39,490 bases of DNA from a virus. The notes under the pieces were generated by a model, which did not search any database, was not told the DNA's origin, and saw nothing but the letters and a program-made list of their open reading frames with translations. The translations under genes were made by a program, and so were the position numbers. The DNA lies in the UHGV virus genome UHGV-0154499, one strand, 5' to 3'. This document shows positions 20,393 through 33,818 of this stretch, piece by piece; position 1 is the first letter of the stretch, and each line of letters begins with the position of its first letter.

Positions 20393-20912
20393 TCAGCAAC
20401 CCCGGTATTATTTCATCCAGCGCAGCTGCTTTGTTCATGGCTTTAATGATGTCCTTCTTGAGGAAATCAATATGTCGGTTTTCCAGCTCCGGGAAGCGCC
20501 GCTGAACCGACAGAGGAACTCCATCAAGAATGCTGGCTACTTCTCCGGCCATCCGCGACAGCACGAACGTGCAGAATGCGGTTTCCACCACCTCAGCGGA
20601 ATCTTTTGCATTTTTTAGTTCCTGGGCATCTGCCTGCGCTCGGGTGAGGCGGTGACGCTCATAGTCAATCGTACCAGGCTGAAGGTCGGATTCCGATGCA
20701 AGACGAAGGTCTTCCACCTCCTTGCGTAATTTCTCATTCTCAATCGCCGCGTCGCGTGCGGAATACCATTCGATAGCCGCGGAAGATTCATAGAGGACCT
20801 CATTACCTTTTCCACCGCCACGTGCTACAGGCATTCCCTGATCCTGCCAGTTCTGAATGGTTCGCACGCTGACCCCAAATATTTCAGAAAGACGCTTTTT
20901 GTTGACCTCCAT
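20367..20912 (-). CDS. nu1: Terminase small subunit Nu1
   Basis: MEVNKKRLSEIFGVSVRTIQNWQDQGMPV... wHTH; near-identical to lambda Nu1; overlaps the start of A. Confidence 0.95.
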   Translation of the reverse strand: MEVNKKRLSEIFGVSVRTIQNWQDQGMPVARGGGKGNEVLYESSAAIEWYSARDAAIENEKLRKEVEDLRLASESDLQPGTIDYERHRLTRAQADAQELKNAKDSAEVVETAFCTFVLSRMAGEVASILDGVPLSVQRRFPELENRHIDFLKKDIIKAMNKAAALDEIIPGLLSEYIEQSG

Positions 20913-20929
20913 AGCTCACTCCATACACA

Positions 20930-21105
20930 AAAACAGAGAAAGGAAACGCCCTCTGGTTATTTAGCCGTTTTTAAGGCTTATCATTTCCTTTCTTTTCAGG
21001 GGGTGTTTACAGTTAAAACAATGAATTAGAGAGAAGAAGAACGGAAACGGCAAATGCCTGAAAATTTTCATAAATAGCGAGAATCTGCGAGGTCGCCGCC
21101 CCGTA
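20930..21105. other. cos site: cosN cohesive-end sequence at about 21090-21101 and cosB between cosN and nu1
   Basis: Minus-strand reading GGGGCGGCGACCTCGCAGATTCTCGCTATTTATGAAAATTTTCAGG...CGTTTCCGTTCTTCTTC is highly similar to recalled lambda cos (GGGCGGCGACCT 12-nt cohesive end, then cosB elements). Confidence 0.8.
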
Positions 21106-21278
21106 ACAAGCCAAATCGCCTGAAAGGACCCGTAAACAATAATGATTATCAATTACATATTATTGACGATAGATATGATTCCAGATAACTACTACCGAAA
21201 AACATTCCATCATGATAGCTTTGCGGCGTACAAGCATCGTAAATGACCAGTGACCGTTACGTCTCTTGTAATTAATTT

Positions 21279-22151
21279 TTAAAAAGCAATATCAATTAGT
21301 TCTCCTTTGCTCAATATTTTTCTAAAAATTTCAGCTCCATAAAGTGTAATAACACCTTCCAGAGTACAAAGAGGTTCCTTAGCACGAGCCATACATAAAC
21401 CACTTTTAGCACCGCCATTTAGTTTAGTATGAAGTGTTTTTGTAAGAATAGCAGCGAGTTCTAAGTCACTTATCTCTGCTACCGTATTTTTATTCAATTG
21501 TGACCTTTCGATTAGTTGAATAAAAATATCGATTCGACCAGGAGTTAACCCAAGATCTTGTGATAGCTCGTGTATTAAACCCCGTAAATCAACTTCAGCC
21601 TTAGGAGTAAAACGCCAATGTTTTATACCAAACTCTTTACCGTTACATGGTGCACCGATAACAACAGCCCTAAGTAAACTTAAAAATCCTTTACAAAACA
21701 CCCAGTTACCATCCGAGTATTCAATACCAAAATCACCACCCACACTATTTTTACTGTAAATATAATGATAATCCTCTGGTATACCAGACTCATGAACATC
21801 ATTACATCTTAATAAATGGTAAATTATATCTTCTGGTGCTGTCTCAGCTACTATCAACTGTGGGATTTCATCCCAATAATATGCTTCCTCAGGAAGGTTA
21901 TACCCCATAATTTGTTGTAACCTTACACGGAGAAATCTTTTATATTTTTCCCCATCTGTCATTCGTTTTTTTTGGGCTTGTCCCTTTGTTTTTTTTGGTT
22001 TAGTTATGGGTTCTTGTTCAAAAGGGAAAACTTTGAGAGCTGATCCAGATATAGCTGTCACCAAAAGCAGAAGTGCAGCTTCGTAACGACTATGAGAAAT
22101 CAAAAAATCAACATCATCCAAGCGTTTTTTTATGTTACTTACCTTTTGCAT
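21279..22151 (-). CDS. Hypothetical 290-aa protein, AT-rich accessory gene (moron) between cos and the lysis cassette
   Basis: Complete ORF with ATG, flanked by AT-rich noncoding DNA on both sides; GC visibly far below the phage backbone; no recognisable motifs. Confidence 0.6.
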   Translation of the reverse strand: MQKVSNIKKRLDDVDFLISHSRYEAALLLLVTAISGSALKVFPFEQEPITKPKKTKGQAQKKRMTDGEKYKRFLRVRLQQIMGYNLPEEAYYWDEIPQLIVAETAPEDIIYHLLRCNDVHESGIPEDYHYIYSKNSVGGDFGIEYSDGNWVFCKGFLSLLRAVVIGAPCNGKEFGIKHWRFTPKAEVDLRGLIHELSQDLGLTPGRIDIFIQLIERSQLNKNTVAEISDLELAAILTKTLHTKLNGGAKSGLCMARAKEPLCTLEGVITLYGAEIFRKILSKGELIDIAF

Positions 22152-22362
22152 GTTTCACCATTTTCACAAGATAGAAAACGATAAAACAACCACAATTCCC
22201 AATCAGAGGCAAGCTTTTAAATATAAAAATTAAGGATAGAATACAATAAAAATCATAATTCAAAAATTCGTATGCACTTAACTTTCATCCTACATAAGCT
22301 GAAGCATTATAAAACATGACTATATTATTGTTTCCATCAGATTACATTACCAGAAAAACCAA

Positions 22363-22575
22363 TTATTTCATGCAATTAGCTTGCACAGCTCTATTATGTA
22401 CCAGAATATCCCGTTTCGTCTGCCTATCCAGCACGGCAATATCATGCTCTGTGAGGTAGATGATGTTCACCCAGTCACAGGCCGTGTCCGTTACTTCAGG
22501 TTTTGCGGGTAAAGTTTTCGCGCAACTCGCGGTTAACATCGTCATCAGGAAGATGATTAACAGTCTGTTGTACAT
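22363..22575 (-). CDS. Outer-membrane spanin subunit (Rz1-like lipoprotein), overlapped architecture
   Basis: Signal peptide with lipobox (LTASC); AAGGAG RBS; overlaps the 3' end of the upstream i-spanin-like gene in another frame. Confidence 0.6.
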   Translation of the reverse strand: MYNRLLIIFLMTMLTASCAKTLPAKPEVTDTACDWVNIIYLTEHDIAVLDRQTKRDILVHNRAVQANCMK

Positions 22576-22772: not shown

Positions 22773-23387
22773 TCACACCAGTGCAACTTTTGCTTTGGCG
22801 TAACGTTCACGGCGGTCTTTAATGCCGTTCTGTCCGCCGTTAATAATCTGCGTTACGCGTTCCACATCCCCCGAATACATCAGGCAACCGCGTAACGTGA
22901 AGTACCACGCCGCCGAACGAGCCGCGTGTCGCTCCTGCGTTAGCAATTCTGGTGTACTGACAAGGTCAAGTTTCAGCGCAGCACCACATTTGGTGTAGTT
23001 CTCACGGCCAGTAATTTGAAGCAGGCCACGACCGCGATATTTCCAGCCGTCACCCTGGCTGTTATTCCCCATGCGGTCACCGTAAACCAGATTGGCTATT
23101 TGCGGCTGGTGGGCGACCTGCTGACCATCGACACGCCCCAGCATTTCGCACTGATACGGCGTCAGACGCTTACCGAAGGTTTTCTTCAGCCCCTCAACCG
23201 AGTAGTTGAAGCTTTCTACCAGCGAAGTAAAACCAGCAGATTCATGCCCAACTTGTGCAATGAACATGGCCTGGTCGTTAAGTGCTGTAATACCAAACTC
23301 TTTCATTGCTGCATCAATGTGCAGAAACCAGCGTGCAGAAACCCCGGCGCTGATACCAGCCGCCTGCTGAAATTGTGATTGGTTCAT
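22773..23387 (-). CDS. Endolysin, glycoside hydrolase family 19 (chitinase-like)
   Basis: GH19 catalytic-region motifs (IAQVGHESAGFT, YRGRGLLQITGRENY). Confidence 0.85.
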   Translation of the reverse strand: MNQSQFQQAAGISAGVSARWFLHIDAAMKEFGITALNDQAMFIAQVGHESAGFTSLVESFNYSVEGLKKTFGKRLTPYQCEMLGRVDGQQVAHQPQIANLVYGDRMGNNSQGDGWKYRGRGLLQITGRENYTKCGAALKLDLVSTPELLTQERHAARSAAWYFTLRGCLMYSGDVERVTQIINGGQNGIKDRRERYAKAKVALV

Positions 23388-24197: not shown

Positions 24198-24240
24198 TTA
24201 GCCCCCTCTTTATTGCTGTGAGTCCTCTCAGAACGAGGGG

Positions 24241-24272
24241 AAAACAAAAAAGGCCGCCCTTGGGCAGCCCTT
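24241..24272 (-). terminator. tR'-like intrinsic terminator just upstream of the holin gene (candidate target of Q antitermination)
   Basis: Minus-strand GC-rich stem (GGGCTGCCCAAGGGCGGCC) followed by TTTTTTGTTTT, about 50 nt upstream of the holin start. Confidence 0.5.
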
Positions 24273-24379
24273 AAATGCATTAAACCTCATAAAAATGAGG
24301 TTCAGATATCGTTTTAAGTCCGTGGCGTAGAAACCACTCTTAACATGCTACATAATAAAATGCGGACCGCACAAAGGTT

Positions 24380-24420
24380 TTTTGATAAATTAAAGACTCA
24401 CAGCACATTAAAGTTCAAAT
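24380..24420 (-). promoter_or_regulatory. Candidate late promoter PR' (minus strand)
   Basis: TTGAAC-18 bp-TTTAAT on the minus strand, upstream of the tR'-like terminator; placement relative to Q is unusual. Confidence 0.3.
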
Positions 24421-24448
24421 GTTAACTATTAGATTCCAAAGGAATATT

Positions 24449-25390
24449 ATGACGACTGCAGTTGCGGTAAAAAAACCCAAAAAACTACGAATTGGATTCT
24501 ATACAAGTAGTTCTGGAACCATTCGGAGCCACTCTGTTGCCAAAGCTGCGATCGATAACCTTTACAGTACTTGCGTAAATGTAACTAATAATCATTTCGA
24601 TACTATATATAAAAATAAAAAATTGAAAATCGCATTTATTAATAAAGATGCCAATGCTAAATATTATTTTGGCTATATGTCTTGCTCAAGGGAAGAATAT
24701 CTACTGCCTTATATTGGAGATGAGAACTGGAAAGAACACAACATCCCATTAGATGATAAAAAATATATTGTCGAGCGCACTTATTTTTTGTATTACTACG
24801 AAAGTGACATTCTGATCCTTACGCAAAATCATCTTGGCCCCAAGGAATCGGATCTGGCTTACCTTTTATACAGCCAGAGTGGTCAACCAGGTAACAACTT
24901 TTCTTTCCAAGCTATTTGGAAGAAAGAAAGTATAAAAGAGCTTCTCGAAACAGGAAGTACACTTAGAAGCTGCGATCTCATTCTTGCTGCCCCAAGAAAT
25001 TTCGATGTGACTAATTATCAGTTAGATAGCTCATTTTCAAAAGATCTTCTGAATATGATGGTTGGCCTTGGCGGCACACATTTAAAACTCAATCTTAGGG
25101 GTAGAGCATCTGGCAGAGTTAAAGTTAAAGGCTATCTTTCGGATCTGATAAAAGATGGTATTAAAGAATTATTAGAAAAAATGCCAAATATTGTCAAAAA
25201 AGCAGCAGTAACACAGCCCAAAAATACTGTAGAGCAAAGCCTTCTTGAACAAGTTCTCATTTCGGAGAAAAACATTCATACCGTAAATGGTTATGGCACA
25301 GATAGCGATGTGCTCCAAGCGATGATTTCTGCTAAAATTGACAACAATGGTTACCTTATCCAGTACGACATAAGCAATAAGAAGGTATAG
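24449..25390 (+). CDS. Hypothetical soluble protein (313 aa), first gene of a two-gene accessory cassette; RexA-like by architecture
   Basis: AT-rich ORF; start at internal ATG with an AAAGGAA RBS; lysine-rich, no TM segments. Possible weak similarity to RexA from memory (GFY near the N-terminus, LGPKESDL...LL), unverified. Confidence 0.6.
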   Translation: MTTAVAVKKPKKLRIGFYTSSSGTIRSHSVAKAAIDNLYSTCVNVTNNHFDTIYKNKKLKIAFINKDANAKYYFGYMSCSREEYLLPYIGDENWKEHNIPLDDKKYIVERTYFLYYYESDILILTQNHLGPKESDLAYLLYSQSGQPGNNFSFQAIWKKESIKELLETGSTLRSCDLILAAPRNFDVTNYQLDSSFSKDLLNMMVGLGGTHLKLNLRGRASGRVKVKGYLSDLIKDGIKELLEKMPNIVKKAAVTQPKNTVEQSLLEQVLISEKNIHTVNGYGTDSDVLQAMISAKIDNNGYLIQYDISNKKV

Positions 25391-25393
25391 TTT

Positions 25394-25837
25394 ATGTTAT
25401 TGAGATATATAGCAAATATTTTAGGGAGCATTTTACTAACATATTTCTTACTGAAGTATGTCCCACTAATGCAACATAATGATATTCTTACGTCCGCAGG
25501 GGTTATCTCCACTGTGTCTGGGATTTTGTTTGGGTTTGTGCTTGCCACCATTTCAATTTTTAGCGCAGCTAGCGCTAATTCAAATGGGGTTTTAAAGGCC
25601 TTAAAAAACAATAACATACTCCAAGGAATTGTAACTAATTTATTAGCCGCTGGAGCGACATTAATTACAGCATGCTTGATTTCACTCGTTGCCATGTTTG
25701 TCAGTGACAATTTAGTCTACAATGACCAAAAAATAGAGTTTATATTCATAATTCAATCATTATCACTATTGATAGTAGCCGTCATAATGTTTGGGTTTAC
25801 TTGGCGTAAAATTAATTGGTTTTTACCACACATATAA
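25394..25837 (+). CDS. Small integral membrane protein with four predicted TM helices (147 aa); RexB-like by size and topology
   Basis: Four hydrophobic segments (about residues 5-24, 34-58, 75-103, 115-137); starts 4 nt after the upstream gene's stop; GAAGGT RBS. Confidence 0.6.
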   Translation: MLLRYIANILGSILLTYFLLKYVPLMQHNDILTSAGVISTVSGILFGFVLATISIFSAASANSNGVLKALKNNNILQGIVTNLLAAGATLITACLISLVAMFVSDNLVYNDQKIEFIFIIQSLSLLIVAVIMFGFTWRKINWFLPHI

Positions 25838-25858
25838 AAGGGCATCCGTGCCCTTTTT
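25837..25858. terminator. Bidirectional intrinsic terminator between the membrane-protein gene and convergent Q
   Basis: AAAGGGCA-tccg-TGCCCTTT with T/A runs on both sides, immediately after both stop codons. Confidence 0.65.
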
Positions 25859-25859
25859 A

Positions 25860-26222
25860 TCAATCCAAATCTAATCTAGCACTAATCATGCACAAACAGC
25901 CGTCAACAAAACCCTCTGCCATTTGCATCTCTATCCTTATTATTTTTTCGTCTTTTTTTTGAGCTTTAGCAATTTTACGCTTCGATACTCCATACAGATA
26001 ATGTGCGACAATAAGTGAATGCTCATATGGTTTCCTTTTCTTGAGGCGAGCTAAGCAACCTTCAATAATCAGAGCATCTTCATCAGTGCAAGAAAGGCGA
26101 GTCTTGCTCGTTTGGGGAAGTAGCCCTTTAAAGCCAGCTGCAATTGGTGAGTAATCCACGCCAGAACTATCGCTCGCGGCCCATCCCCCCCAACGTTCTA
26201 ATACCATCTGAATATCACGCAT
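25860..26222 (-). CDS. Q: Late-gene antitermination protein Q (phage 82/21-type family)
   Basis: 120 aa; MRDIQMVLERWGGWAA... N-terminus and Cys-rich region typical of 82-type Q antiterminators. Confidence 0.8.
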   Translation of the reverse strand: MRDIQMVLERWGGWAASDSSGVDYSPIAAGFKGLLPQTSKTRLSCTDEDALIIEGCLARLKKRKPYEHSLIVAHYLYGVSKRKIAKAQKKDEKIIRIEMQMAEGFVDGCLCMISARLDLD

Positions 26223-31299: not shown

Positions 31300-31398
31300 T
31301 TTTCCCTCTGGAGTTAAGTAATGCAGTGCACTGATAGTAGGATATCTTACATTAAATGGTCAAGCACTCCTACATCAGATAATGGTAGGATTGCCTAC
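31300..31398. promoter_or_regulatory. OR-like operator/promoter region between cro and cI (PR/PRM)
   Basis: Operator copies TAGTAGGATATCTTACAT (about 31335-31352) and TGGTAGGATTGCCTACAT (about 31383-31400), plus a third inverted element CCTACATCAGATAATGGTAGG. Confidence 0.65.
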
Positions 31399-32055
31399 AT
31401 GAAAATGAATGATCGAATCCGAAGCAGACGAAAAGAGCTAAAGATGACGCAATCTGTCCTGGCAAAGCTTGTCGGGGTTAATCGCGTCACCATCACCGGT
31501 TGGGAATCCGGTGACTACAAACCGGGTGGTGAAAACCTCCAGGCGCTTGCGGCTGCACTAGAAAAGACGCCGCAGTGGTTACTGGAAGGAAAGGATGATG
31601 GAAGTCAGCAACCACCAACCATGGACCCGGAGCAAAGATTCGGAATTAGGTCAGTTCCCGTTCTCACATGGGTACAGGCCGGGGAATGGACGGCCAATAG
31701 CGGAACGATCACAGAGCGGGACATTCATGACTGGGTCTATACTTCGGCTGCCGTTTCTGAAAGCGCATTTGCACTCATTGTTCGCGGCGACTCGATGACC
31801 AACCCTACAGGTGCACCAAGTATCCCCGAGGGCTCTATTGTCGTTGTAGAGCCTGATTTTGGTGATGCCAGTCAAGCTAATGGAAAAATTGTTATTGCAC
31901 AGCTTCTGGGAAGTGATGAAGCCACTATTAAAAAGTTCGTCATTGATGGGCCGCTGAAATACCTAGTACCTCTCAACCCCAATTACAGGATTTTAGAAGT
32001 CAATGGCAACTGCCGATTGGTAGGGTTAGTAAGACAAGTAATAATGGATTTATAA
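31399..32055 (+). CDS. cI: CI-like repressor (HTH plus LexA/S24 peptidase-like C-terminal domain)
   Basis: N-terminal HTH (LKMTQSVLAKLVGVNRVTITGWESG) and C-terminal S24 domain with the Ser region (IVRGDSMTNP) and the Lys-containing region (VIAQLLGSDEATIKKF); start set at MKMND. Confidence 0.88.
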   Translation: MKMNDRIRSRRKELKMTQSVLAKLVGVNRVTITGWESGDYKPGGENLQALAAALEKTPQWLLEGKDDGSQQPPTMDPEQRFGIRSVPVLTWVQAGEWTANSGTITERDIHDWVYTSAAVSESAFALIVRGDSMTNPTGAPSIPEGSIVVVEPDFGDASQANGKIVIAQLLGSDEATIKKFVIDGPLKYLVPLNPNYRILEVNGNCRLVGLVRQVIMDL

Positions 32056-32249: not shown

Positions 32250-32492
32250 ATGAAAGAGAACGAACCACATATTTATGCCGGTAGCATGAGCAACGAAGAG
32301 CTTTATCAGTGGCTGTGTAAGAAGGTTGAAGCAATGGCGCATCTTCGTCAGTTACATATGGATAAAGCCTCCTGTGTGCGAAGGCTTGAAGAAGTGGATT
32401 CAATGATCACTGAAGCTACCCTTGAATCTCAATTAGAAATTTCTCGGACAACTCAGGGTCCCATTCAGCGTCCAAATAATCAGGGAAGTTAA
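32250..32492 (+). CDS. Hypothetical 80-aa protein, first ORF downstream of the candidate PL
   Basis: ATG with moderate RBS; helical-looking composition; overlaps the 3' end of the convergent minus-strand gene, so one of the two may be spurious. Confidence 0.3.
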   Translation: MKENEPHIYAGSMSNEELYQWLCKKVEAMAHLRQLHMDKASCVRRLEEVDSMITEATLESQLEISRTTQGPIQRPNNQGS

Positions 32493-32862
32493 CTGGGTAA
32501 TTTGAGTGAGTAATGCGCGAGAGATATTCACTTGCTGGCTCCGGAAGAGCAGAGAACTGGATTTCATCGTGCAGGGCAAGCAGCGCATCAGTAAGTGTTA
32601 AATCTCGAATTACTGACAGCGGCCATTTGTATTTGAGAAGCAACTTGTGGTGAAGAGCCTGTTTTCCGTTAAGTCCATTGAGTTGATTCCCGTACTTTTT
32701 ACGGTGCTCATAGAGAATGATGTCTAGAGCACAGATTAGCACGGCGCGGTTTGTGACACAGGAAACTTCAGAGCTATCAACATAGCCACTGATTTGGATA
32801 CCGCGAAGTTGAGCAATATTGCTTTTGATCTGCGTAAAGAGGTGAGCGATTCCATTAATCAT
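32416..32862 (-). CDS. Hypothetical 148-aa protein encoded convergently inside the early-left region
   Basis: Internal ATG (MINGIAHLFTQ...) preceded by AAGGAA at 6 nt; GC lower than backbone; the upstream in-frame part of the track ORF (GTG start, Cys/Trp/Arg-rich) looks non-coding. Confidence 0.4.
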   Translation of the reverse strand: MINGIAHLFTQIKSNIAQLRGIQISGYVDSSEVSCVTNRAVLICALDIILYEHRKKYGNQLNGLNGKQALHHKLLLKYKWPLSVIRDLTLTDALLALHDEIQFSALPEPASEYLSRITHSNYPVNFPDYLDAEWDPELSEKFLIEIQG

Positions 32863-33446
32863 TTTGATTCCTTCGGGGTTGTAGGGACTTTGAAGGATAC
32901 CACCACGCCTGATGTGGTTAAAAGCAGGCCAAAGCAATAACAAGTAACTCCCTGTTCTGGCGGCCCGGTGTTTTCCCGTGTATTTCCGGTAACCGCCAGC
33001 CTTTTTCAGGGAACAACGACGAGAGCATTGACGAGCAAGGCATAAGTGCTGGTTCGATTCCAGACAGTCCCATTCAGTTGGGAGGGTTGGGCAGGGAAAA
33101 GGTTCGTTCGATTCGGACACCGGCAGTGTTCTCTTCGTTGTGGTGAATTGCAGTCCATCGAGACAACCAGAAGATAAGCATCTGGCGCCACAACCTTATT
33201 GCTGTGTGTAGTCTTGGCGGTACCAGGGTCTTCAACCTTATACAAGGGGGACGAAGATAATGTTCTACCTCGTTACCGCCCTTTTTACGCAACAGAAAAG
33301 GGCATCACCGGGCGACGGGCTCATAACCCAATCCACCCGGGCAAAAAGAAAGCGGTCTCTGCAAGCCGCCGACCAATGCAGGTGCCCTTCTCTGTTGTGT
33401 ATGGAGAAAGTTCGGCGGTTGCAGCCGCCTTAACGAGGGTAAAACC

Positions 33447-33818
33447 ATGAGTAATGACCGCATGACCGTAGTGCCAGATTTTCTTGGCGAACTGGATGCC
33501 GGCGTGTTCATGAACAAAATCGCGGCAGCACTTAATACCACCGCGCTTGGCGTTCTAAACAACGGCAACAAAGGAAAAGTAGTCCTCACCTTTGATTTTG
33601 AGCGCATGGGTAATTCCGTTGAAGAGAAGCGCGTCAAGATCAAACACAAGCTGAACTACAGCACCCCGACACCGCGTGGTAAAGCCTCCGAGGAGGACAC
33701 AACCGAAACCCCGATGTGGGTCAACAAAGGCGGGAAGCTCACCATCCTGCAGGAAGATCAGGGGCAACTGTTCGGGATCACTGGCGCGGTGGATGGAAAG
33801 CTTAAAGCGGCTCAGTGA
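33447..33818 (+). CDS. Hypothetical early protein (possibly YfdP-like, as in E. coli prophage CPS-53)
   Basis: 123 aa; first clear gene of the plus-strand early-left operon; family assignment is from memory. Confidence 0.6.
   Translation: MSNDRMTVVPDFLGELDAGVFMNKIAAALNTTALGVLNNGNKGKVVLTFDFERMGNSVEEKRVKIKHKLNYSTPTPRGKASEEDTTETPMWVNKGGKLTILQEDQGQLFGITGAVDGKLKAAQ

Follow-up and report, generated by a model that had tools for sequence, protein, structure and literature searches.

A candidate RexAB-type exclusion cassette, built from a DUF6731 protein and a four-helix membrane protein, beside a phage antiterminator Q gene

In the stretch of viral DNA that we analyzed (39,490 nt, hereafter the window), which belongs to a Citrobacter prophage, two plus-strand genes lie between the antiterminator gene Q and the lysis genes, facing the late operon. 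We asked what this two-gene cassette is, and whether it deserves the comparison with lambda RexA/RexB that a first-pass annotation, made from the sequence alone, had drawn. Rex is the oldest known abortive-infection system, going back to Benzer's rII work, and to our knowledge both its trigger and its mechanism of activation remain unsolved.

Layout of the cassette and its neighbors

ORF calls and transmembrane (TM) prediction recovered both genes as first described, a soluble protein of 313 aa (A) followed by a 147-aa protein with four TM helices (B). The open reading frame of gene A, on the + strand, runs from 24419 or 24449 to 25390 and yields 313 aa if counted from the second ATG (gene A, 24449-25390), which has a Shine-Dalgarno sequence AAGGA (24438-24442) 7 nt 5' of it and matches the start position of the aligned homologues. 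Gene B (25394-25837, + strand) starts 3 nt past the stop codon of A, with its ribosome-binding site AAGAAGG lying within the last codons of A. Judging from this arrangement, B is translationally coupled to A and would thus be made in a fixed ratio with it. When the two genes were compared with the copy in an E. coli phage (dS ∼0.6-0.7), dN/dS was 0.039 for A and 0.054 for B, values that mark them as real genes, not chance ORFs, and that place both under strong purifying selection.

The placement of the cassette between Q and the lysis genes also held up in Pfam searches. The gene to its right, convergent with B and forming the right edge of the cargo slot, is an antiterminator Q (PF06530, 25860-26222, − strand, E 4.6e-53). 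To its left, on the late-operon side, come a holin that is the first late gene (PF16931, 23811-24197, − strand), a second holin (PF05449, 23543-23824) and, after it, a GH19 endolysin (22773-23387). GC content was 0.32-0.40 over 24350-25850 and 0.50-0.57 on either side, in keeping with the AT-richness noted earlier. The terminator reported at the end of the cassette was recovered as a symmetric intrinsic hairpin (25836-25857) between the convergent genes B and Q, folding at −11.4 kcal/mol on the + strand and −11.9 kcal/mol on the − strand (z −4.5/−2.7). Because it has U-runs on both sides and folds on both strands, it is moreover bidirectional. Diverged loci carry a hairpin of different sequence at this B/Q site, and phage mEp390 has annotated bidirectional terminators at the corresponding place. 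AT-rich, antisense and insulated by a terminator, the arrangement is that of a moron.

On the left flank, just upstream of the holin start, tandem hairpins with a U-run (24236-24304, − strand) form a candidate tR'. They fold at −30.6 kcal/mol (z −4.6) and were also picked up in the terminator scan, and the first of them covaries between loci. The copy in the E. coli phage is homologous from ∼24240 onward, and the 24236-24304 segment forms the left boundary of the mobile Q/cassette module. Next to it lies a conserved block (24305-24392, − strand) that contains the near-invariant elements GCGGTCCGC and AGAGTGGTTAC. All Q-linked loci have this block, and loci with A and B but no Q lack it; since it tracks Q across loci, it is part of the Q module and not of the cassette. 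Of 80 Q-anchored loci searched with nhmmer, 77 have it downstream of Q, and in the cassette-free phage PhiR49_2 it abuts the Q stop codon. An Rfam scan of the block returned nothing near the gathering score; its position suggests that it carries the −10 of pR' and the initial transcribed/qut region.

Between the block and gene A is an AT-rich leader (24393-24448, + strand) which, unlike the adjacent block, is not conserved between loci. The leader presumably holds the promoter of A, and the −35 of the divergent late promoter is probably within it as well. A promoter region belonging to the cassette, as proposed earlier, is therefore plausible, although the sole candidate is weak (TTGATA at 24383, with a poor −10), and a search of the window for a convincing sigma-70 −35/−10 pair for pR' or gene A found none. 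By strand the cassette does stand opposite to the late operon, as had been noted, but it is probably upstream of the late promoter, between Q on one side and the Q-linked block and tandem terminators (24236-24392) on the other. In that position it would be outside the late transcripts, which need not cross it.

The first-pass annotation had also remarked that the canonical rex slot after cI was empty. The cassette is 5.5 kb from cI (31321-32055), and the lambda RexAB feature of lying directly downstream of cI is absent for the pair in this window. No rex-like + strand genes follow cI, but the slot is occupied by two − strand ORFs of unassigned function (32416-33120 and 33305-33649), and the terminator and OL that had been placed directly after cI were not confirmed in the window.

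Relation of the two proteins to RexA and RexB

The exact gene A protein is WP_249414821.1 from Citrobacter, named "DUF6731 family protein" by NCBI, and A is a bona fide member of Pfam DUF6731 (PF20505; 43.8 bits against a gathering score of 27, E 3e-11, residues 49-268), while B falls in phrog_8552. DUF6731 and PHROGs 7651 and 8552 are families without functional annotation, and the tie to Rex is the new element here. DUF6731 proteins and their phrog_8552 partners are occasionally misannotated, for example as "portal protein". In Pfam scans, DUF6731 was the sole return for A at E up to 1, with RexA (PF15969) absent, and RexB (PF15968) was absent from the return for B. The PADLOC check that had been suggested for a defense system gave no match for A or B, nor did NCBIfam or PHROG supply a defense annotation for either.

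The fold of A points to RexA. RexA is built of a split globular domain with a 7-stranded sheet, an inserted 4-stranded dimerization domain and a C-terminal helix that returns to the globular part (PMC11077077). The AF2 model of A (pLDDT 80.8) shows the same split globular/dimerization architecture with its elements in the same order: 7 strands and helices, then 4 strands and 3 helices, then C-terminal helices. When this model was searched against the PDB with Foldseek, lambda RexA (8TWQ) ranked first with an E of 2.7e-7 and a probability of 1.0, followed by RdgC, and RexA was the best and sole strong PDB match by two methods, Foldseek among them. The other PDB neighbors of A (CHL4, CENP-N, RdgC, IML3 and 3oh8) are the set published for RexA. 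RdgC, CHL4, IML3 and CENP-N are cellular DNA-metabolism or kinetochore proteins without a membrane partner, and their match scores to A are far below that of RexA. A is thus predicted to have the fold of lambda RexA and to be its remote structural homologue. Lambda RexA is shorter than A (279 versus 313 aa), but most representatives of the RexA family have 305-320 aa, and the pI of A (9.06) compares with 8.61 for RexA and 9.16 for RexApp, the soluble protein of a Pseudomonas putida system discussed below.

Sequence comparison gave a fainter signal. BLASTP of A and B against RexA and RexB found no significant match, a PDB sequence-profile search with A was empty, and hmmsearch with the A profile matched 0 of 148 RexA representatives. 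A DUF6731 bridge was sought among 73 sampled RexA relatives and none was found, all 73 being PF15969. The weak RexA-like motifs suspected in the first-pass annotation do have a counterpart, in that BLASTP and hhalign repeatedly aligned an invariant block of A, D..L....N..GP(K)..DL, to D.IGF....GPT..DL of RexA. With alignments of growing diversity, hhalign of A against RexA returned E values of 0.043, 0.009 and 0.002, collinear and always including the GP(K/T)..DL block; against 73 diverse RexA representatives, the E of 0.002 extended over 179 collinear columns. The score of 31.3 stood only slightly above those of the controls, 26.9 for a reversed alignment and at most 26.1 in 40 block shuffles. 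The profile-profile similarity between A and RexA is thus marginal, and we do not rest the case for RexA on hhalign. When the RexA profile was run against all cargo ORFs, A-family proteins alone were picked out.

B, a predicted inner-membrane protein, is RexB-like in size and topology, and homology to RexB is unproven. The two proteins have 147 and 144 aa, share the spacing of four TM segments (2-20, 37-55, 83-101 and 117-135 in B; 8-26, 49-67, 84-102 and 116-134 in RexB) and a basic central loop, and are nearly superimposable in hydropathy and charge layout, a likeness to be read with the ease in mind with which small four-helix membrane bundles match by chance. The AF2 model of B (pLDDT 81.3) consists of four long helices, and the charge distribution predicts an N-in/C-in topology, which bears out the four-helix claim and agrees with the published topology of RexB and of gp31 from mycobacteriophage Sbash (4 TM, N-in/C-in, cytoplasmic central loop). 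The central loop of B carries an invariant G..ALK motif, and its TM2 is rich in small residues (G/S/T/A). An hhalign comparison of B with five RexB sequences gave an E of 0.21, in a non-equivalent segment only. In the structural check, A matched RexA, but RexB was absent from the top 50 matches when the B model was searched against BFVD. The best structural match there was borderline (E 0.05, probability 0.99), a 165-aa Sbash protein with the length of gp31, a validated RexB analogue; hhalign of B against Sbash gp31 gave no signal.

Distribution of the pair and the junction between Q and pR'

B was directly downstream of A in every locus examined (91/91), and the relatives in Pseudomonas and Vibrio keep the pairing (A profile, 1e-17 and 4e-96; B profile, 7e-11 and 1e-28). 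In ∼80 of the 91 loci, 20-30 nt separate the B stop codon from a Q homologue. Three other phages (L089, L098 and AUS531phi) have the order cI, A, B, with the pair directly after cI and hence in the canonical lambda rex position; the L089 repressor is 60% identical to lambda cI. The pair was also found in a P4-type primase element, as canonical RexAB is, and, far from Q or cI, in tail-gene islands and a Vibrio Vinavirales-like element. The pair is mobile between unrelated mobile elements. In Providencia it stands beside a SNIPE/T5orf172 gene and a pyocin. Lysis genes next to the cassette vary freely between loci, and A and B travel with Q. Together, the predicted RexA fold of A, the topology of B, the constant pairing and the homologous pairs next to cI support the reading of the cassette as Rex-like.

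The junction between Q and pR' is itself a variable cargo hotspot. It held cargo in 74 of 77 loci, in at least 12 different gene sets, and the three cargo-free loci indicate that late regulation does not require the slot. Among the genes found there in place of A and B are those for an annotated Abi protein, a KAP NTPase, an HNH protein and a PtuA-like ATPase, and several of the gene sets are Abi-, Septu- or KAP-like. The junction looks like a productive place to mine for new defense genes, comparable to the P2/P4 hotspots. Two further candidates from these loci were set aside: mEp390_047, which by eye appeared TIR-like, had no PDB sequence match in support, and another cargo pair of a soluble and a 4-TM protein (L107 type) was unrelated to RexA, A, gp30 and RexApp at the level of HMMER.

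Function of the cassette and comparison with known systems

Most likely, A and B form a family of the classic Rex exclusion system that had not been described before. We consider it probable that the cassette works as a two-component abortive-infection module of the RexAB type, excluding other phages; neither of its two protein families had earlier been tied to Rex, and we infer its defense function from these relationships. If it behaves like RexA, RexApp and Sbash gp30, A should form dimers and clamp DNA without sequence specificity. A promoter of its own would drive the pair in the lysogen, with the bidirectional terminator shielding it from Q and its position upstream of pR' keeping it apart from the late operon. 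Upon heterologous infection, A may sense a trigger made by the phage (a protein, or a protein-DNA intermediate of replication or recombination) and activate B through the cytoplasmic central loop. B would then oligomerize to a channel or pore, so that the membrane is depolarized, ATP drops, growth stops and the infection is aborted.

Alternatively, the pair could serve the development of the resident phage, with A as a RexA-like, non-specific DNA binder that modulates the passage from lysogeny to lysis or the activation of pR' by Q, and B antagonizing or titrating A, any exclusion being a by-product. In lambda, RexA does not need RexB to bias the bistable switch, the authors of that work question exclusion as its true function and the primary role of Rex is debated; moreover, in ∼80 of the 91 loci the pair is only tens of nucleotides away from Q and the conserved target block, and in three phages it adjoins cI/Cro. 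We nevertheless think a developmental role unlikely, because the same pair occurs far from Q and cI in the P4-type, tail-gene and Vinavirales-like settings, because the junction hosts many unrelated cargos, Abi and PtuA-like ones included, and is empty in three loci, and because the layout fits a moron. A smaller chance still attaches to a Rex-like defense with the roles exchanged, A being a toxic effector that B sequesters until infection. By January 2026 the described Rex-like systems numbered only five (PMC12894663), and mycobacteriophage Butters gp30/gp31 is among them as a variant with such reversed roles. The sequence gives no cue that tells sensor from effector, and A is the more conserved partner (pN against the L044 copy 0.12, versus 0.25 for B). 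On the other hand, the membrane protein is the effector in four of the five systems, TM2 of B is rich in small residues, and B has an invariant motif in the cytoplasmic loop, a loop that is essential in Sbash gp31.

The proximity of two holins, together with the small, multi-pass nature of B and the location of the Sbash rex-like genes, which also follow a lysis cassette, raises the idea of an accessory for lysis timing or superinfection exclusion, in which B would be holin- or antiholin-like or would block injection, and A would be its regulator. This is improbable: A and B are read from the other strand, probably beyond the limits of the late transcription unit, they stay with Q while the adjacent lysis genes change, they are found in elements without nearby lysis genes, and B had no match to a holin family. 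Kiwa is another system that combines a small membrane protein of ∼4 TM helices (the sensor KwaA) with a soluble DUF4868 effector of ∼310 aa (KwaB), and superficially the cassette looks similar. However, PADLOC, which includes Kiwa models, gave no match at E up to 1; Pfam returned DUF6731 with DUF4868 absent; the order, soluble then membrane protein, is the reverse of kwaA-kwaB; and the PDB fold matches of A contained no Kiwa structure, with RexA the clear top. These results effectively refute a Kiwa identity, to which we assign next to no probability.

Beyond the RexAB-type assignment, a wider joint reading can be put forward tentatively, as one that may well prove wrong. Under it, DUF6731 and its 4-TM partner would constitute a sixth Rex-like family that lacks significant similarity in sequence to the five others. 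Its members would range over Enterobacterales, Vibrio and Pseudomonas and be carried by tailed phages, P4-type elements and a Vinavirales-like (non-tailed) prophage. In lambdoid phages, the family would occupy a previously undescribed defense hotspot between Q and its target pR'/qut, a position that could not be separated by recombination without killing the phage, and it would have an antisense self-immunity switch. On induction, antiterminated early-right read-through would cross the bidirectional terminator and run antisense through B and A, switching the Abi module off and sparing the lytic growth of the resident phage.

A RexA fold with essentially no sequence identity offers comparative leverage on Rex. 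Residues common to the whole fold, such as the D...GP(K/T)..DL block, would be prime candidates for the sensing or activation surface, and the invariant central-loop motif of B is a candidate docking site for A. PADLOC-DB v2.0.0 does not recognize DUF6731 proteins or their phrog_8552 partners, and adding both to defense-annotation models would give a candidate defense function to unannotated loci in prophages of clinical Escherichia, Klebsiella, Citrobacter, Enterobacter, Salmonella, Yersinia and Pseudomonas.

Among known systems, lambda RexA/RexB (PF15969/PF15968; 8TWQ) shares with A-B the gene order, soluble then membrane protein with a short gap, and the occurrence of both pairs beside P4-type primases, whereas neither of its Pfam models matches A or B. 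In lambda, rex belongs to the cI operon, while in the window the pair is convergent with Q and lies between Q and the presumed pR'. RexABpp of P. putida prophage P1 (PP_5643/PP_5644) provides a defense that needs both genes, and RexApp binds DNA and, when over-expressed, causes RexBpp-dependent membrane damage (Sci Rep 2026, PMC12894663). We recovered PP_5643/PP_5644 from IMG/VR (L102, the KT2440 prophage) via the primer sequence in that paper, with the native GTG start. RexApp resembles A in size and pI (330 aa, pI 9.2), while RexBpp has 188 aa versus 147 aa for B. Both proteins were without a Pfam family, DUF6731 included, and hhalign to A and B gave E values of 0.38 and 0.76, which makes RexABpp a separate family. 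Sbash gp30/gp31, with its counterparts CarolAnn gp44/43 and Butters gp30/31, is a validated heterotypic defense and, like A-B, pairs a soluble with a 4-TM protein. It has no sequence similarity to A or B, and gp30, at 372 aa, acidic (pI 6.1) and from phages of Actinobacteria, differs from the basic, 313-aa A. Unrelated in sequence to RexABpp and to Sbash gp30/31, A-B thus appears to be a further Rex-like family.

Two coupled genes and their surroundings

The two plus-strand open reading frames that the first-pass annotation had reported between the lysis genes and the antiterminator gene Q are both real. Counted from an ATG with an AAGGA Shine-Dalgarno sequence, gene A (24449-25390) encodes 313 amino acids, or 323 from an in-frame ATG upstream at 24419; gene B (25394-25837) encodes 147. 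The A stop codon is 3 nt from the B start and the ribosome binding site of B lies within the last codons of A, indicating that the two genes are translationally coupled. The pair sits in a GC trough (0.32-0.40, versus 0.50-0.57 on either flank), in keeping with the AT-rich composition first ascribed to it. E. coli phage vB_EcoS-733R5 carries a copy with 88% identity, against which dN/dS was 0.039 for A and 0.054 for B (dS ∼0.6-0.7); these low ratios indicate that both are functional genes. A Citrobacter protein, WP_249414821.1, is identical to A. We also observed a near-consensus sigma-70-like site antisense within A (25168-25197, minus strand, TTGACA-18-AATAAT, 11/12), which is kept in the E. 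coli copy and overlaps the coding sequence for the invariant KELLEK motif; its conservation may reflect coding constraint alone.

The neighbours had also been read correctly, with Q (PF06530; 25860-26222, minus strand), preceded by a DUF968 gene, on the right, and two holins (PF16931, PF05449), a GH19 endolysin and Rz/Rz1 on the left. The strong terminator that had been described corresponds to the 22-nt B/Q spacer, a symmetric hairpin of -11.4 kcal/mol on the plus strand and -11.9 kcal/mol on the minus strand; since it folds on both and has U-runs on either side, it is a bidirectional terminator. The rex slot downstream of cI had been called empty, but in the window it is occupied by two minus-strand open reading frames (32416-33120, 234 aa, and 33305-33649, 114 aa), neither of which had a Pfam or PADLOC match. 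A second AT-rich island (20900-22400, GC 0.29-0.39), between Rz/Rz1 and the small terminase gene, contains a minus-strand open reading frame of 290 aa (21279-22151), also without a Pfam or PADLOC match, and is a candidate for a further moron.

A belongs to Pfam DUF6731 (E 3e-11; 43.8 bits, where the gathering score is 27) and to phrog_7651, and B to phrog_8552, all families without assigned function. PADLOC and NCBIfam gave no match for either protein, and DUF6731 was mentioned in no paper found by our literature search. The cassette DNA is rare, occurring in 11 of 5,426 complete E. coli genomes, and PGAP labels in E. coli copies read "DUF6731 family protein" and "hypothetical protein". In two GenBank phage records, ON470608.1 (30253-31194; comparison locus L001:6210-7151) and ON470622.1, the A homologue is labelled "portal (connector) protein", very likely a mis-annotation: the label is at odds with the position and fold of the A homologue, and the record has its real portal gene elsewhere.

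Predicted structures of A and B

We modelled A with AlphaFold2 from an alignment containing 38 homologues (pLDDT 80.8, pTM 0.66). In a Foldseek search of the PDB, lambda RexA (8TWQ) was the top match (E 2.7e-7, probability 1.0), in line with the Rex-like cassette originally proposed, followed by E. coli RdgC; the list comprises the same structural relatives that Adams et al. gave for RexA (PMC11077077). The model runs from seven strands with flanking helices through four strands and three helices to C-terminal helices, an order that reproduces the split globular domain of RexA, interrupted by its dimerisation domain (PMC11077077). TM-scores were low (0.36-0.40), which fits a different inter-domain angle. 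RexA itself is known to move between a closed and an open state. Like RexA (pI 8.61) and RexApp of P. putida (9.16), A is a basic protein (9.06).

The Pfam RexA model did not match A. An exhaustive database profile search recovered 267 representatives of the RexA family (PF15969) at 50% identity, mostly of 305-320 aa; the family is thus much larger than formerly listed, reaching beyond the close lambda-like set, and lambda RexA (279 aa) is an unusually short member. The A profile matched none of 148 RexA representatives, and all 73 sampled RexA relatives were assigned to PF15969 and none to DUF6731. Alignment of A with RexA by hhalign gave E values of 0.043, 0.009 and 0.002 as the diversity of the RexA alignment rose. 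These alignments were collinear over up to 263 columns and always paired the same block, the invariant D120..L122....N127..G130-P131-(K)..D135-L of A with D.IGF....GP(T/K)..DL of RexA. At 31.3, the score was modestly higher than that of a reversed control (26.9) and than the highest among 40 block shuffles (26.1), so that sequence homology is weak and suggestive, and the case for A as a RexA-like protein rests on its predicted fold.

In the AlphaFold2 model of B (pLDDT 81.3), four long helices form a bundle and the central loop contains a short amphipathic helix. Hydropathy bore out the four membrane segments expected (2-20, 37-55, 83-101 and 117-135), compared with 8-26, 49-67, 84-102 and 116-134 in RexB. 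In both proteins positive charges lie at the N-terminus, central loop and C-terminus, and therefore an N-in/C-in orientation is predicted for each, which is the published topology of RexB and of Sbash gp31. An invariant motif, G65..A69-L70-K71, lies in the central loop of B; in gp31, defence is abolished by substitutions in the corresponding loop. No significant similarity was found by hhalign between B and RexB or gp31. The best BFVD match of the B model was a 165-aa Sbash protein (E 0.05, probability 0.99, TM 0.49), the same length as gp31, and RexB was absent among the top BFVD matches listed. B is thus RexB-like in form, with homology to RexB unproven.

Genomic niches of the module

Among 91 loci with an A homologue (42-96% identity, many of them near-duplicates, in at least six distinct genomic contexts), every one had a B homologue following on the same strand, typically after 2-28 nt. 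Some A copies were frameshifted or truncated, as expected of accessory genes. A-B is an obligate, mobile module. The two families also travel together outside Enterobacterales, in Pseudomonas phage AUS531phi (A profile 1.4e-17, Pfam DUF6731 8.6e-13; B profile 7e-11) and in a 14.6-kb Vibrio element classified as Vinavirales (4e-96 and 1e-28), and the latter implies that the module crosses virus realms. Vinavirales are non-tailed and tectivirus-like; in PQ189356.1 (L101, Vibrio cyclitrophicus) A-B directly follows the integrase.

A-B is found in several unrelated settings, and most loci (∼80) carry it between Q and the late region. In L089, the bacterial genome locus L098 and AUS531phi, the pair comes directly after a cI-type repressor, in the same orientation, and Cro, CII and replication genes lie on the opposite side. 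This is lambda's own cI-rexA-rexB slot, and among the contextual arguments for functional equivalence with Rex its occupancy is the strongest. The L089 repressor shares 60% identity with lambda cI (E 3e-109), while in L098 Kil and RecT come after the pair. Two tiny open reading frames for hydrophobic peptides of ∼35 and 44 aa lie between cI and the A homologue in L089 (5690-5945). In Klebsiella (L003-L006), A-B adjoins a P4-type primase, and canonical RexAB (PF15969/PF15968) is found at a site of this kind in Erwinia (L015), the primase domains being Zn_Ribbon_Prim/Toprim_3/DUF927; RexAB and DUF6731/B appear to be interchangeable cargo of satellite-like elements. Accessory islands among tail genes also harbour A-B; in Providencia, it has a pyocin/colicin-immunity pair on one side and a SNIPE/T5orf172 gene on the other.

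All Q-linked loci share a block of ∼85 nt just upstream of A (24305-24392, read on the minus strand) with the near-invariant elements GCGGTCCGC and AGAGTGGTTAC. A covarying hairpin comes next, joined in the window by another strong hairpin with a U-run (24236-24304, minus strand, -30.6 kcal/mol). A-B loci lacking Q have neither block nor hairpins. In the cassette-free phage PhiR49_2 the block abuts the Q stop codon, and in phage mEp390 another antisense gene, with annotated bidirectional terminators on both sides, takes up the same gap. By position, block and hairpins would represent the promoter-proximal/qut region of the late promoter and the late terminator tR', placing the cassette between Q and its site of action; clean -35/-10 hexamers were not assignable in the block region, and Rfam had no match to the block.

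We located the block in 77 of 80 Q-anchored IMG/VR loci (L105-L184). Q lay directly beside it in 3 (gap 1-63 nt), and the other 74 carried 0.7-2.2 kb of cargo, nearly always antisense, between Q and block. At least 12 unrelated cargo sets were present, A-B accounting for 17 loci. Some of the others were named in their sources "putative phage abortive infection protein", "KAP family NTPase", "HNH endonuclease" and "SDH family Clp fold serine proteinase", and one was a PtuA-like ATPase by PDB similarity (E 1e-7). The Q-block junction (24236-25860 in the window) is a variable accessory/defence hotspot. Because recombination cannot part Q from its cognate site, cargo hitch-hikes with the module.

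Another pair, a gene for a soluble protein (355-372 aa) followed by one for a 4-TM protein (170 aa), occupies this slot in L107 (5382-7031) and in L145, L163, L171 and L172, from Salmonella, Citrobacter and Klebsiella. It had no HMMER-level relation to RexA, the A family, Sbash gp30 or RexApp, and may be yet another sensor and membrane-effector module. A single 272-aa gene fills the mEp390 slot (gene 047, L103:2647-3465; also L174:5428-6246); its N-terminus (FLSWSG...) looks TIR-like by eye, and a PDB sequence search returned no match.

Proposed function and known Rex-like systems

We consider A-B to be probably a RexAB-type exclusion module, given the predicted fold of A and topology of B, together with coupling, obligate pairing, selection, mobility and rex-slot occupancy. 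The pair would be expressed in the lysogen, where A may act as a DNA-clamping dimeric sensor or activator; once triggered by an infecting phage, it would cause B, the putative membrane effector, to depolarise or permeabilise the membrane, giving a defence phenotype. That A-B instead serves the switch or the late regulation of its resident phage is unlikely. Hitch-hiking in the hotspot explains the tight linkage to Q and implies no part in late regulation. A Butters-type arrangement, in which effector and regulator are reversed, seems somewhat less likely still, and an accessory for lysis timing or superinfection exclusion is improbable. A Kiwa system, the least credible identity, was rejected on PADLOC, Pfam and PDB fold-match results. 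A speculative extension of this reading is self-immunity: A-B and the early-right operon are convergent, so that on induction antiterminated read-through could conceivably silence the pair and spare the resident phage.

A 2026 paper (PMC12894663) counts no more than five RexAB-like systems, those of lambda, Sbash, CarolAnn, Butters and P. putida (RexABpp). Defence by RexABpp needs both genes; RexApp binds DNA and its over-expression causes RexBpp-dependent membrane damage, and the validated RexBpp is likewise RexB-like in form with homology unproven (PMC12894663). We retrieved the KT2440 RexABpp genes from IMG/VR via the published primer sequences (native start GTG); they fell in no Pfam family and gave no hhalign signal to A or B, and Sbash gp30/gp31 had no sequence relation to A or B. 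Being unrelated in sequence to both, A-B would represent a further family of the Rex-like kind, outside those described.
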